Part shown: positions 39,927 to 64,000 of the stretch, in pieces
Layout of the letters: each line of letters starts with the position of its first letter
Numbering within the stretch: the first letter of the stretch is position 1
Assembly: GCA_020632035.1 (NCBI GenBank)
Contig: JACKGG010000001.1
Span: 152,985 to 216,984, forward strand
Direction of reading: 5' to 3'
DNA length: 64,000 nt
Source of the DNA: Candidatus Nomurabacteria bacterium
GTDB taxonomy: Bacteria; Patescibacteriota; Minisyncoccia; Phycocordibacterales; UBA918
The notes under the pieces: model-generated
What the model was told of the DNA's origin: nothing
The model's database searches: none
The model's input: only the letters and a program-made list of their open reading frames with translations
Translations under genes and position numbers: made by a program

Positions 39927-40958
39927 TTGTTATATATGAGAATCGAGGAAGATTTGAAGCTAGACTATAGTGATGTGCTCATTCGACCTAAAAGAAGTGC
40001 TCTATCCAGCCGAAAAGAAGTAAATCTTGAACGCGAATTTAAGTTTAGACATGGAGATAAAAACTGGAAAGGAATTCCTATCATTGCCTCAAACATGGAC
40101 GGAATCGGTACCATATCAATGATGAAATCTCTATCAAAGCAAAAAATGATGGTCGCTTTACATAAGCACTATGAATCAGAGAGATACTCGGAAATTATAG
40201 ATGAGTTTACTTTTCTCACCAGTGGAATAAAAGAAGAAGATTTGGAAAAATTAGAAGCTCTACAAAAAAATAAACCTATAAGATTTATCTGTCTAGACGT
40301 AGCAAATGGATACACTGAAAGATTTGTTTCAGTTGTCAGTCGAGTGAGAGAGATGTGTCCGGACAGTATTATCATGGCCGGAAACGTAGTAACTGGTGAA
40401 ATGACCGAGCAACTCATTCTTTCTGGTGCAGATATTATAAAAATAGGTATTGGACCAGGCTCTGTTTGCACAACTAGAGCCAAAGCTGGAGTCGGATATC
40501 CACAACTCTCTGCTGTAATTGAATGTGCAGATGCAGCTCACGGACTCAATGGTATGGTTTGTGCAGACGGCGGATGTACCAATCCTGGTGATATTGCCAA
40601 AGCTTTCGGAGCTGGTGCTGATTTTGTTATGTTGGGAGGAATGTTAGCTGGACACACTGAATCAGAGCTTGAGCTAATTGAAAAAGATGGACTACAATAT
40701 TGCGAATATTATGGCTCCAGTTCTCAAAAAGCGATGCAAAAACACTCTGGAGGAAAAGCTGAATATAGAGCATCGGAAGGAAAAGAAGTGCTTATTCCGT
40801 TCAAAGGAGATGTGTCTAAAACCCTAGAGGAAATTCTGGGTGGTGTTCGTTCGGCGTGTACATACGCAGGAGCGGAAACGTTAAAACAACTTTCTAAATG
40901 CACCACCTTCGTGAGGGTCAGTAACCAAACTAACAACATATTCGGACTTCCTCAATAA
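39927..40958 (+). CDS. guaC: GMP reductase (IMPDH/GuaC family)
   Basis: DYSDVLIRPKRS, IIASNMDGIGT, KIGIGPGSVCTTR (catalytic Cys loop), 343 aa matches GuaC length. Confidence 0.75.
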   Translation: MLYMRIEEDLKLDYSDVLIRPKRSALSSRKEVNLEREFKFRHGDKNWKGIPIIASNMDGIGTISMMKSLSKQKMMVALHKHYESERYSEIIDEFTFLTSGIKEEDLEKLEALQKNKPIRFICLDVANGYTERFVSVVSRVREMCPDSIIMAGNVVTGEMTEQLILSGADIIKIGIGPGSVCTTRAKAGVGYPQLSAVIECADAAHGLNGMVCADGGCTNPGDIAKAFGAGADFVMLGGMLAGHTESELELIEKDGLQYCEYYGSSSQKAMQKHSGGKAEYRASEGKEVLIPFKGDVSKTLEEILGGVRSACTYAGAETLKQLSKCTTFVRVSNQTNNIFGLPQ

Positions 40959-41167: not shown

Positions 41168-41470
41168 AAGATTTTGACGCATAATTAAAAACCGCCAGAC
41201 TACTTGGGTCCAGCGGTTTTAAAGCTATTCGCGCTCCAGGGTTCGAACTCTACGAGTTCAGTTCAGGTTGTTGCTATTTTGTAAAATCAAAATAGCTGGC
41301 AACCTCCTAAAACTTACTCCCAGAAAGTTTAGCCTAGGATCTTTTAAATTAAATAACGAGCGAAGCAACTATATCGAAGTATGTAAGAATTTTGCTGGAA
41401 AATAATGAGTTCACGAATATATTTTCTGTATGCAGGCTCAGCTCGCGTGGACACAAAAGTCCCGCTGTCT

Positions 41471-41772
41471 GTCCGCGCTCTAGGGTTCGAACCTAGGACC
41501 TTTCGAGTATCAGTCGAATGCTCTACCAACCCTATTGCCTCGTAAACATCGGCAATTCGCTCCGCGACCGGGAAAAATACTATACGTATTTTTCAGCTCG
41601 CGCGTACAAGTAAAAAACATCGTCCGCGCTCTAGGGTTCGAACCTAGGACCTTTCGAGTATCAGTCGAATGCTCTACCAACCCTATTGCCTCGTAAACAT
41701 CGGCAATTCGCTCCGCGACCGGGAAAAATACTATACGTATTTTTCAGCTCGCGCGTACAAGTAAAAAACATC
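41471..41772 (-). repeat. Perfect 2 x 151-bp tandem repeat, each unit = 3' ~60 nt of tRNA-Ile + 90-nt spacer
   Basis: Units 41471-41621 and 41622-41772 are identical by eye; each begins with tRNA-Ile 3' portion (T-arm, anticodon arm, part of D-arm) and diverges at the D-loop. Confidence 0.85.
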
Positions 41773-41773
41773 G

Positions 41774-41846
41774 TCCGCGCTCTAGGGTTCGAACCTAGGA
41801 CCTTTCGAGTATCAGTCGAATGCTCTACCAACTGAGCTAAGCGCGG
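41774..41846 (-). tRNA. tRNA-Ile (anticodon GAU)
   Basis: Minus-strand 73-nt cloverleaf: acceptor CCGCGCT/AGCGCGG, D-arm GCTC-AGTTGGTA-GAGC, anticodon loop CTGATAC, T-arm CTAGG-TTCGAAC-CCTAG, discriminator A; CCA not encoded. Confidence 0.85.
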
Positions 41847-41962
41847 ACGATGTTTTCTAACAACGTGGCCAAAACTATAGCAGATTTTAACAATATTTGA
41901 AAGGGTAAAAATGAAAACCGACAGGGTTTGGAACCTTGCCGGTTTAGTGTCGCCGCTAACAA

Positions 41963-42808: not shown

Positions 42809-42819
42809 ACTTAATAAAC

Positions 42820-42856
42820 AAAAGACGGTGGCCTTTGGGCCACCGTCTTTTGTTTA
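42820..42856 (+). terminator. Rho-independent terminator
   Basis: aaaagacggtggcc-tttg-ggccaccgtcttttgtttatt. Confidence 0.7.
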
Positions 42857-43087
42857 TTAAAACTCTACTTCTGTTCGTAAGGGTTTATTCATAATCATAA
42901 CTCACAGCAGACTTGGAGTGTCACGTACTCTTTTGTCTTATCCTTTAGGCTTGGTCTTTCCCAAGAGTCTAATACCATTTCAGAGAATTGAGTATCATTT
43001 CTCGTTATGTGCTCAATTGAGGCACATAACACCGACCAATTAGTTATCATTGTGCTTTGTTACCAAAACACGACAACGTATCCAATT

Positions 43088-44545
<1,458 letters not shown>

Positions 44546-62415: not shown

Positions 62416-62583
62416 GTACGGGTGCTTCTTACAGAAGATGTGCACCTTTTGGATAGTTTGGTTCACTAGTTCCTAAAATATTTCAAAAGGTCTTGCGCGA
62501 CATTATTTGATTTATCAAATAAGAAGTGCCCTTGTGGTGAAAATCTCCCAGACTCCCTTACCCCTTACCCCTTACCCCAAAGT

Positions 62584-62611
62584 AAAAAACCACTCGAAAT
62601 GAGTGGTTTTT
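62584..62611. terminator. Bidirectional rho-independent terminator downstream of 5S rRNA cluster
   Basis: aaaaaccactc-gaaa-tgagtggttttt. Confidence 0.65.
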
Positions 62612-62633
62612 ATATGGAGTATTTAAAAGCTCT

Positions 62634-62791
62634 AAGTTGGCGCCTACCTACTCTTCCCCTTGCGGAGTACCATCGGTGGTAGAAGACTTTGGCTTTCAAA
62701 CGAGCGAGAGAAACGAAAGTGGACCGCAGTCAATTTTCATTTACGAGCAAGTAAAAAAGTGACCGTGCCGTGTTCGGAATGAGAACGGGTG
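62634..62791 (-). pseudogene. Interrupted/variant 5S rRNA copy (3' half + about 75-nt insertion + 5S core motif, divergent 5' end)
   Basis: Shares aagttggcgcctacctactcttccccttgcggagtaccatcggtggtagaagacttt with the intact 5S, then unrelated insert, then ccgtgttcggaatgagaacgggtg. Confidence 0.5.
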
Positions 62792-62916
62792 AGCTAGTCT
62801 GGGAGACTAGCGCAAGACTCGCCCAGCAATTTTGTGAGTTTCGAGACAAAATAGCGAGCGAGTGGACAGCCGCTGTAAGAGGGACCCCTTTCGCAAATCA
62901 CCCAAAGCAAAACAAA

Positions 62917-62938
62917 AAGTCACCTTGCGGTGACTTTT
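62917..62938. terminator. Rho-independent terminator hairpin between 5S copies
   Basis: aaagtcacc-ttgc-ggtgacttt with flanking A/T runs. Confidence 0.5.
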
Positions 62939-62957
62939 CAGGAGAATTAAATGCTTA

Positions 62958-63032
62958 AAGTTGGCGCCTACCTACTCTTCCCCTTGCGGAGTACCATCGG
63001 TGGTAGAAGACTTTACTGCCGTGTTCGGAATG
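62958..63032 (-). pseudogene. Truncated 5S rRNA copy (3' about 75 nt)
   Basis: Identical to 3' two-thirds of intact 5S through ccgtgttcggaatg, then diverges. Confidence 0.55.
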
Positions 63033-63121
63033 CTCAATGTTTGTTCAAGAGCTTGCGATTGAACACAAACATTAGTCCTTTAGGGCGAACGGTCTAAAAG
63101 TTTTTAAAAATCAAGCTCTTC

Positions 63122-63233
63122 AAGTTGGCGCCTACCTACTCTTCCCCTTGCGGAGTACCATCGGTGGTAGAAGACTTTACTGCCGTGTTCGGAATGAGAA
63201 CGGGTGTACCCCTTCCCCCAAAGCACCAACTTG
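63122..63233 (-). rRNA. rrf: 5S ribosomal RNA
   Basis: Minus strand AAGTTGGTGC...CACCCGTTCTCATTCCGAACACGGCAG...GATGGTACTCC...GAGTAGGTAGGCGCCAACTT; helix I pairing of ends; matches bacterial 5S consensus (CCGAACACGG, GATGGTA). Confidence 0.8.
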
Positions 63234-63415
63234 AAAGGCTCGATTTTGATTTTAAAAAACTTTTAGTTGTGTACCCTTGAAATTGTCTCCCAGACAATTT
63301 CAATCCCTCAGCACCAACTTTAAGAATTTAATTCGTTATTTAACTTGCTTCAATCGCGTGAAATGGTGATATGTTGTCGTGAGTCCTTATACTCTGATTA
63401 GTAACATCTCGTAAA

Positions 63416-63524
63416 TGGTAGGGGTAGCAGGAATTGAACCCACCGCCTTTGCTTGATCGCACTCGTAGCGAGCTCAGGCCCTTCGCGAGAACCAGTATTC
63501 TTTGTCCATCCAAGTGGTACCCCT
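63416..63524 (-). ncRNA. tRNA-like structured element (acceptor-like stem + T-arm-like GGTTCAATTCC + encoded CCA) in 23S-5S spacer, flanked by 17-bp inverted repeats
   Basis: Minus strand AGGGGTA...GTGGGTTCAATTCCTGCTACCCCTACCA; inverted repeats caatcgcgtgaaatggt at 63351-63368 and 63562-63578; could not be folded into a canonical cloverleaf. Confidence 0.25.
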
Positions 63525-63789
63525 TGAATAAACTACTGACACTCTATACCCCCGTGAAATTACCATTTCACGCGATTGAAAATTCACATATTCAAGAGAC
63601 TCTTCGAACTCGACCTTTCAGCCGAGCATTAGGTAACACTTCACTCATCAAATTACACAGTTCAAAATCTTACAAATTGCCTGCATTTCTAGGCGCGCCA
63701 GAAAGATTTTTGGAACGGGGCTTGTGCCCAGTGACAAAAATCTTTTGCCAGCGCAACACCGAAATGCTGCAATTTTAAGGTTTTGATGT

Positions 63790-64000
<211 letters not shown>

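Follow-up and report, generated by a model that had tools for sequence, protein, structure and literature searches.

Integrase crossovers in tRNA genes usually fall in the anticodon loop, the T-loop or the 3' end, and Williams reportedly set out in 2002 the sublocation rules for integration within these genes. Small inserts can also stem from MITE/PATE-like non-autonomous elements, including IS200/IS605 derivatives with subterminal hairpins. MITEs have been surveyed (PMC11602168), and the tRNA attachment-site repeats left by integrase-borne islands and prophages are general background (PMC9897764). Dada DNA transposons, which are eukaryotic and protein-encoding, insert specifically in tRNA, snRNA and 5S genes and produce target duplications of 6-7 bp (PMC8869645). 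The multi-intron, split and permuted tRNA genes of archaea are functional and are processed at bulge-helix-bulge structures by the splicing endonuclease (PMC3218864). Closer to the organism studied here, group I introns occur in tRNA genes of Patescibacteria (PMC13011429), and CPR 16S and 23S rRNA genes contain inserts of 0.1-5 kb inside the working gene, according to PMC9297842, which cites Brown 2015.

The locus compared here with these systems is an array of tRNA-Ile copies in a Candidatus Nomurabacteria bacterium. It lies in a stretch of 64,000 nucleotides that was analysed as a whole and is called the window. The only tRNA that ARAGORN called in the window is a minus-strand tRNA-Ile(GAT) at 41773-41846, which lacks an encoded CCA and which Rfam scored at 72.9 bits over 41774-41846. 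With introns allowed, ARAGORN called nothing more in the array or in a tRNA-like stretch at 63414-63552. The acceptor stem of this intact tRNA-Ile(GAU), copy 1 of the array, runs on into both flanks as a 20-nt inverted repeat with 95% complementarity. More specifically, the inverted repeat and a pairing measurement define a leader strand (41847-41859, minus strand) that pairs with the trailer and lengthens the stem by about 10-15 bp, the measured extension being 15 positions.

A promoter scan located a promoter-like site 5' of the intact tRNA (41901-41874, minus strand), made up of TTCAAA, 16 nt and the extended -10 motif TG-n-TATAGT. Within the array such a site is found only 5' of copy 1, and by eye the TGnTATAGT motif also precedes the first element of the locus in relatives. 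At the opposite end, an inverted repeat with flanking T and A runs forms a hairpin at 41185-41223, assigned to neither strand, which is likely a two-way terminator common to the tRNA array and a convergent 62-aa ORF; a consensus terminator scan did not flag it. Because all copies lie between one promoter-like site and one terminator hairpin, the array is probably co-transcribed. The 16S rRNA gene (43085-44544) is on the same strand, 1.24 kb upstream of the tRNA. The 23S and 5S genes sit 18.5 kb further upstream than the 16S gene, so the rRNA genes are unlinked. An ORF with a T4SS_pilin domain (PF18895) separates the 16S gene from the tRNA, and guaC and mur ligase genes are further neighbours.

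The array is laid out head-to-tail as repeat-spacer-repeat-spacer-repeat. Three identical 60-nt copies, starting at 41471, 41622 and 41773, correspond to tRNA positions 15-74. Tandem Repeats Finder returned a period of 151 with 2.4 copies, 100% matches and no indels over 41471-41832, and none of the shuffled windows yielded matches like those of the array. A repeat search gave two 151-bp units, 41471-41621 and 41622-41772, that are 100% identical. Read on the tRNA strand, a unit starts with a trailer of 14 nt and continues with a tRNA 5'-strand remnant (A5), a 64-nt element that we call E1 and tRNA positions 15-74. As the spacer consists of trailer, 5' acceptor-strand remnant and E1 replacing the D-arm, each unit is a defective tRNA-Ile paralogue. 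The original prediction had described an intact tRNA followed by two perfect units, by identical 3' copies that diverge in the D-loop and by an older remnant, and ARAGORN, Rfam and the repeat search bear this anatomy out. The stretch between the 60-nt repeats, previously taken for a plain 90-nt spacer, is actually 91 nt long and composed of the trailer, the 5'-strand remnant and a conserved, covarying E1.

All parts of the two units lie on the minus strand. The trailer GATGTTTTTTACTT, recognised from sequence, repeats and relatives, makes up the first 14 nt of unit 1 (41759-41772) and is complementary to the leader. It is followed by A5, GTACGCGCGAGCT (41746-41758), identified as a remnant of the tRNA 5' end by alignment and comparison with relatives; its counterpart is GTCCGCGCTTAGCT, the tRNA with its two preceding bases. 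In relatives the A5 motif 5' of E1 is GTCCGCGCGAGCT, which comes after each species' own acceptor sequence. The first E1 (41682-41745; alignment, pair counts and nhmmer) folds into three hairpins in place of the D-arm and stops where the tRNA starts again at G15. The repeat search showed the bodies of copy 2 (41622-41681) and copy 3 (41471-41530), both spanning tRNA positions 15-74, to be 100% identical to copy 1. The stretch between these bodies (41531-41621) repeats the first set exactly, with a second trailer (41608-41621), A5 (41595-41607) and E1 (41531-41594). Pairing is possible between A5 and the 3' acceptor strand, which lets a window unit fold as E1 plus a minihelix of acceptor and T-arm; thermodynamically, the fold of one unit does no better than shuffles (z = -1.0).

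Perfect identity of the two units could point to an artefact of assembly, in which repeat expansion added the second unit to a genome that has one. Most short-read assemblies break or gap at the repeat, and in five public assemblies of the same organism (L001, L002, L003, L006 and L007) a contig end or an N-gap falls inside it. A single unit is present in one contig (L004), but every 141-mer of its path also occurs in the two-unit genome. L004 was for this reason rejected as a one-unit allele, and it fits a collapsed repeat. The contig L132, which comes from a different sample and assembly, contains the intact tRNA, a spacer, a fragment and the start of a second spacer, and this order of spacer, fragment and spacer requires at least two units. 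An artefact, which had been listed earlier as assembly expansion, is thus very improbable, and the E1-bearing pseudo-copy would stay even with only one unit. The independent assembly supports the duplication at the level of at least two units; the exact count comes from the present assembly and one short contig. The units are identical, head-to-tail and bounded by a direct repeat (period 151, 100%), as in unequal exchange or slippage. Tandem duplication by such a process, an alternative already raised in the original prediction, is the best account of the perfect 151-bp duplication.

Downstream of the identical units lies copy 4, the oldest copy, which spans 41227-41470 and has lost its middle. 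Its start (41438-41470, minus strand), recognised through the repeat family, combines a trailer that is older and different (41453-41470) with an A5 that is likewise older, GTCCACGCGAGCTGA (41438-41452). Arrangements of tRNA, trailer and GTCC(A/G)CGCGAGCTGA that are homologous to this start were found at three related loci (L054, L099 and L091). A degenerate spacer copy had been predicted from about 41400; it is present, but detectable only over 41438-41470, where 41438-41453 weakly repeats the spacer's first part. The decayed interior at 41339-41437 (minus strand) gave no match, and a similarity comparison recognised neither E1 nor a tRNA body in it. Next to it, at the T-stem/T-loop junction and within 41254-41338 on the plus strand, alignment to L034 and L091 reveals an E3-type element of the E2/E3 family (41254-41332), antisense to the tRNA, followed by CCTAGG (41333-41338), the displaced T-stem strand of copy 4. 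The copy ends in a degenerate T-loop, T-stem 3' strand and acceptor 3' strand (41227-41253, minus strand, about tRNA positions 53-75; repeat family), of which 41230-41248 is 95% identical to tRNA positions 53-71. The predicted tRNA 3' remnant is hence real, and lies at about 41227-41253 rather than at 41213-41245. Positions 2172-2283 of L034, whose 16S is 94.5% identical to that of the window, match window positions 41344-41239 at 70.5% identity. Since L034 shares both insertion site and orientation, the E3-type insertion in copy 4 is probably older than the split between the two species.

Comparison loci were collected by an anticodon-arm scan of 185,579 species genomes, which yielded 120 loci, almost all labelled Patescibacteria (CPR) and mostly Paceibacteria-type; all comparison sequences are metagenome assemblies. 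BLAST searches of these 120 loci returned spacer homologues with 81-90% identity; they adjoin tRNA-Ile of other species and precede the intact gene in some of them and follow it in others. Thirteen distinct E1 sequences, once aligned, support three hairpins with 19 pairs: 98.8% of cells are paired, and 17 of the 19 pairs carry compensatory changes, with both sides altered. The observed values were not matched by any of 500 shuffles, and when the partner was slid by 1-3 columns as a control, 35-54% were paired. Six G-U cells point to the tRNA-sense strand, and hairpin 3 carries a conserved 11-nt loop, GATGTTTACGA. An outer helix CGCGA/TCGCG closing hairpin 1 was dropped from the model; the hairpin TCGC-GGA-GCGA covaries instead.

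With nhmmer, E1 was found in 14 copies at 12 loci, the window included, and a metagenome scan with the E1 core added 28 further loci, 20 of them with E1. As a whole, more than 30 Patescibacteria loci carry E1 beside tRNA-Ile, tRNA-Glu or tRNA-Ile(UAU). Most copies from the metagenome scan adjoin tRNA-Ile(GAU); other pseudo-copies are 5' fragments of tRNA-Glu(CTC), which lie upstream of the gene, or sit beside tRNA-Ile(UAU). At tRNA-Ile, E1 is missing from most sampled loci and occurs only where the 16S is at least 87% identical to that of the window. In the closest relative, L143 (16S 96.4% identical), A5, E1 and the shattered remains of a tRNA body come after the intact tRNA, with a repeated spacer and a second, truncated E1 further on; this is the same theme built from another unit than in the window. 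The sequence after E1 is shattered in varying ways between species. According to the original prediction, the same array as a conserved feature of related genomes would speak against its reading, and this is partly the case: E1 is conserved across a family-level clade, but the arrangement and the copy number vary. In Paceibacteria-type CPR, E1 appears to be confined to extra defective tRNA copies that lie beside the intact gene in the same orientation.

At E <= 1, Rfam assigned no family to E1 or to the other inserts, whether in the window region, around the 5S or at nine related loci; the only Rfam 15 matches to the array or to the inserts at this threshold were weak partial tRNA matches on the two fragments. 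Literature searches returned no description of E1, of E2/E3 or of nested tRNA or 5S copies. The analysis exposes what appear to be two undescribed families of structured elements, E1 and E2/E3.

Our preferred reading, to which we give a probability of about one half, takes the array as an intact tRNA-Ile(GAU) gene with three defective paralogues, E1 as a small structured non-coding insert of such copies and E2/E3 as an insert of the oldest one, and has recombination make the second unit. Within this reading, the anatomy, the conservation, covariation and orientation bias of E1, the parallel at the 5S gene and the presence of at least two units in another assembly are observed; the order of events and the recombination are inferred. 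A serious rival, possible although rather unlikely in our judgement, holds that the tRNA-Ile transcript yields E1 as a functional RNA, either a small RNA or a cis element that tRNA-processing enzymes would release or position by recognising the tRNA-like flanks. The two readings agree on the anatomy and differ only on why E1 persists. If E1 were a functional RNA, the tandem units would raise its dosage and the broken tRNA pieces would be mere handles.

Several features of E1 would suit such a functional RNA. E1 lies on the tRNA strand in all 14 nhmmer copies and in all 26 metagenome copies that have a neighbouring tRNA (40/40), and always within the stretch bounded by the tRNA's promoter-like site and its terminator. 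Its stems covary, partly via G-U pairs, the hairpin 3 loop is conserved, and E1 is kept at tRNA-Ile across species whose 16S is 87-96% identical and whose neutral flanks are unalignable. The minihelix that A5 and the 3' acceptor strand may form in each window unit, together with E1, also fits, as does an independent tandem amplification at tRNA-Glu, where three units of about 154 nt carry E1 in tRNA-Glu(CTC) 5' fragments (L161). Against a functional RNA stand the lack of an Rfam family and of a partner gene, the variable shattering of the sequence after E1, and its absence from most sampled tRNA-Ile loci. The conserved loop, furthermore, has no complementary target in the window, where its sole complementary sequence is its own antisense strand. 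Sense orientation, loop conservation and persistence across a family-level clade seem to suit a selected RNA no less than a selfish insert.

The original prediction had read the 151-bp units as scars of serial site-specific integration. Two versions of this reading may be considered, namely repeated integration at tRNA-Ile with elements later deleted down to about 91 nt, or a 151-bp mini-element without integrase that integrated twice in trans. Each such event would bring a replacement 3' part of the tRNA. Like attachment-site repeats, the window presents an intact tRNA and then direct repeats of its own 3' part, which is the classic form. This tRNA is also a real integration target in the lineage: the search of relatives for an element at tRNA-Ile, proposed beforehand as a check, turned up L025, in which the intact tRNA-Ile(GAU) is followed by a tyrosine integrase gene (PF00589, E = 4e-32) and by toxin genes of the HigB/ParE-like and HicA kinds. 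At a distance of 3.4 kb lies a 17-nt fragment that covers the tRNA from its T-loop to its 3' end. In the window, only the oldest remnant, copy 4, begins at the T-loop, and the young units have a trailer and an A5 unlike the older ones, which would fit an import. Integration could explain some T-loop fragments.

The young units fit integration poorly. In contrast to the T-loop break of L025, they break in the D-loop, at tRNA position 14/15, and the structured E1 stands at the matching place in many species. Between the repeats there is no cargo, only 91 nt that hold the covarying element together with a tRNA 5'-strand remnant not expected from integration at the 3' part. As had been noted before, no integrase was found either: none of the ten flanking ORFs scanned has a recombinase domain (PF00589 included), and tblastn with the L025 integrase gave no match in the window or at other loci. 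The compact E1 also recurs at tRNA-Glu 5' fragments upstream of the gene, and relatives of the window have 5' pieces upstream of the gene too, unlike attachment-site repeats. A search of 2.9 million viral contigs with the tRNA 3' part, the spacer, the E1 core and an E2 pattern returned 0 matches, so nothing ties the elements to phages. We consider integration scars an improbable origin of the array, and the reading of the units as interrupted paralogous copies has largely replaced it.

Alternatively, the units might be working tRNA-Ile genes whose D-arm intron is removed after transcription. Patescibacteria tRNA genes often carry introns (PMC13011429), E1 is sense-oriented and structured, and the tRNA body 15-74 is intact in the window. 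The 5' exon, however, would be GTACGCGCGAGCT, which leaves a mismatch in the acceptor stem, supplies a single base for positions 8-9 and forms no proper D-stem. The known Patescibacteria tRNA introns lie within the anticodon loop and have a U before the 5' splice site and a G at the intron end (PMC13011429), and in relatives the body after E1 is truncated or full of further inserts, some of them antisense. We regard the removal of E1 as an intron as scarcely credible. E1 shares with the described group I introns the phylum, the sense orientation and an RNA-like structure within a tRNA gene (PMC13011429). Unlike them, it measures 64 nt, has no RF00028 match, occupies the D-arm instead of the anticodon loop and resides in a defective copy that adjoins an intact gene. 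A group I intron was rejected on size, on the D-arm site, on the lack of an RF00028 match at E <= 1 and on a 5' part that makes no valid exon.

The archaeal tRNA genes likewise have interruptions at several positions, including the D-arm and T-arm (PMC3218864); here, by contrast, the copies are decayed, an intact gene coexists with them, and some inserts are antisense. No pairing resembling a bulge-helix-bulge was seen by eye at the borders of E1. The CPR rRNA inserts (PMC9297842) are similar in lineage and in their placement within stable-RNA genes, and differ from the inserts found here, which measure 64-110 nt and sit in redundant partial tRNA and 5S copies.

Partial copies of the resident tRNA within 900 nt are not restricted to the window. 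They were found at about 24 of 114 tRNA-Ile loci, at 8 of 28 tRNA-Leu(CAG) loci and at a few other tRNA loci. At nearly all of them, 5' pieces lie upstream and 3' pieces downstream of the intact gene, and a few loci (e.g. L010 and L034) have an additional interrupted tRNA copy downstream. The pieces share species-specific substitutions with the intact gene and break in or beside loops, at positions 13/15, 25/26, 35/37 and 53-59. The inserts other than E1 form one family, E2/E3/E4, with the order End A (hairpin CTTACAG, then CTGTACAC), central helix, GTCTTGCG, second hairpin and CTCAC. In the helices of E2/E3, 92% of cells are paired and 10 of 15 pairs show compensatory changes. Targets are tRNA-Ile, tRNA-Leu and 5S. 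Relative to the tRNA, E2/E3 has the same orientation in 13 cases and the opposite one in 11, which favours insertion at the DNA level and disfavours an intron. E2/E3 thus probably acts at the DNA level, inserting in loops of tRNA and 5S copies in either orientation.

In several species, the intact tRNA stands on a long leader-trailer helix at the tip of the E2/E3 central helix, and in the same species two halves of an older tRNA copy flank that element. Such 'Russian dolls' would place a tRNA or 5S gene that is itself intact, and is held on a long leader-trailer helix, inside an element that splits an older copy of the same gene (tRNA-in-tRNA, 5S-in-5S). A leader-trailer helix of at least 8 bp is present at 27% of tRNA-Ile loci, compared with 4% in a mismatched control, and goes together with partial copies (odds ratio 6.1, p = 8e-4). 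As only these 27% show it, leader-trailer pairing was rejected as a trait of all tRNA-Ile in this group.

The tRNA-Ile array does not stand alone in this genome, for the 5S gene of the window shows the same pattern. The intact 5S (63123-63230) has a leader-trailer helix too, about 28 bp long, and 100% identical pieces corresponding to 5S positions 35-108, 25-50 and 53-108 lie downstream of it. An E2-type element (62789-62882) splits one 5S copy, and pieces of the 5S 5' part lie directly upstream of the intact gene.

In some respects these inserts resemble MITE/PATE elements. E1 and E2/E3 are small and non-coding, have hairpins at both ends and occur as related copies at several targets, E1 at tRNA-Ile(GAU), tRNA-Ile(UAU) and tRNA-Glu and E2/E3 at tRNA-Ile, tRNA-Leu and 5S; E2/E3, furthermore, occurs in either orientation. 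They differ in that no transposase partner and no target-site duplication was identified for E1 or E2/E3, in that their targets are loops of stable-RNA genes, and in the strict orientation of E1. We infer mobility from the distribution of the elements: no enzyme or autonomous partner of E1 or E2/E3 was found, and the 8-13 kb pieces of related genomes contain no transposase-encoding ORF. Dada transposons (PMC8869645) are likewise specialised on small structured-RNA genes, and survival relies on another intact copy in both cases. The elements described here are tiny, non-coding and bacterial, unlike Dada, and the spare copy is adjacent.

If the array consists of interrupted paralogous copies, its history may be pictured in three steps. 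Small elements of the E1 or E2/E3 kind would enter a redundant copy of a stable-RNA gene. Recombination among the short direct tRNA repeats created in this way would keep the pieces and the intact gene identical. The second identical unit would then have come from an unequal exchange that took place recently between the 60-nt repeats. A redundant, E1-carrying copy of tRNA-Ile may have stood beside the working gene since before the clade diversified. The young units are not simple duplicates of the present downstream sequence, because their trailer and A5 differ from those after copy 3, and an event of import or replacement is needed to account for them. The gene-proximal part was probably replaced or imported at some stage, with a crossover within the tRNA.

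More broadly, we suggest tentatively, and with somewhat less than even confidence, that the genomes of Paceibacteria (CPR) may contain a class of small, structured and non-coding elements, E1 and E2/E3, which has not been described before and colonises stable-RNA genes. At times these elements would be nested as 'Russian dolls', carrying or regenerating a working copy of the gene that they interrupt, and the array in the window would be one product of them. For annotation and assembly of CPR genomes the locus is a warning, as exact short repeats at tRNA and 5S loci break short-read assemblies and can be mistaken for integration sites. If our reading is true, an apparently routine tRNA-fragment scar is one case of a lineage-wide phenomenon in bacteria with very small genomes. 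Tiny genomes are expected to shed junk, yet single-copy tRNA and 5S genes here keep broken copies with conserved, covarying elements. E1 and E2/E3 would then be two new candidate families of RNA or DNA structures, and they would point to a possible new lifestyle of mobile or selfish elements on essential single-copy genes.

The intact 5S rRNA gene of the window (63123-63230, minus strand) lies within a region, 62430-63320, that also holds fragments of the same gene on both sides of it. Three of these pieces, all on the minus strand, are 100% identical to the intact 5S and correspond to its positions 35-108 (62959-63032), 25-50 (62766-62791) and 53-108 (62635-62690), while short 5' pieces are found in the minus-strand region at about 63262-63316. 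One 5S copy is interrupted at 62789-62882 by an element of the E2 type, a structured insert found in the loops of tRNA and 5S copies, and a second, E2-like element lies antisense at about 62432-62540. The leader and trailer of the intact gene form a helix of ~28 bp.

Between the 23S and 5S genes, a 139-nt stretch on the minus strand (63414-63552) has tRNA-like ends, reading GGGGGTA, then a T-arm (GGGTTCAATTCC) and TACCCCTACCA, with CCA encoded. Neither ARAGORN, with introns on or off, nor Rfam returned a match for this stretch, which may be a further interrupted or unusual tRNA.

The rRNA genes themselves (43085-44544 and 63123-64000) are unlinked, with 23S-5S followed by 18.5 kb of protein-coding genes and then by 16S. 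The tRNA-Ile gene comes after 16S, across a 1.24-kb gap that contains an 87-aa ORF and, on the opposite strand, an ORF with a T4SS-pilin domain. A near-perfect 21-bp hairpin (42813-42860) between the pilin-like ORF and the 16S 3' end gave a weak match to 'MIR8008' (E = 0.017) and is most simply a two-way terminator. The window further carries a GMP reductase gene (guaC, 39936-40958), whose protein begins MRIEEDLKL. This start appears to resemble the N-terminus of enterobacterial GuaC, a similarity that could point to horizontal acquisition.

Gene-copy nesting of the same kind was observed at tRNA-Leu(CAG) genes in five loci from other assemblies (L051, 5150-5450; L048, L059, L069 and L077). 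In L051, an older copy of tRNA-Leu is interrupted in its T-loop by an element of the related E3 type, whose two halves enclose the intact tRNA-Leu. At tRNA-Glu(CTC) in L161 (980-1480), L140, L148 and L154, one to three tandem units of ~154 nt lie upstream, each made up of the first 23 nt of the tRNA and E1, the three-hairpin element that replaces the D-arm in defective tRNA copies. This array is analogous to the tRNA-Ile array of the window, but its units are on the 5' side.

An Adlerbacteria genome carries a 3.4-kb element integrated at tRNA-Ile (L025, 600-4110). Its tyrosine integrase adjoins the tRNA gene, and it includes HigB/ParE-like and HicA toxin genes, a 17-nt piece of the tRNA that spans the T-loop through the 3' end, and a second, partial integrase copy (2277-2423).

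At the tRNA-Ile gene of the window, the leader (41847-41859) pairs with the trailer (41759-41772), lengthening the acceptor stem. Such pairing extends the stem by 8-24 bp in about one quarter of the Paceibacteria loci (L008-L127), and the complementarity is kept across species despite differing sequences. Loci that carry partial gene copies have the extended stem more often than other loci, and the pairing looks like a processing stem.
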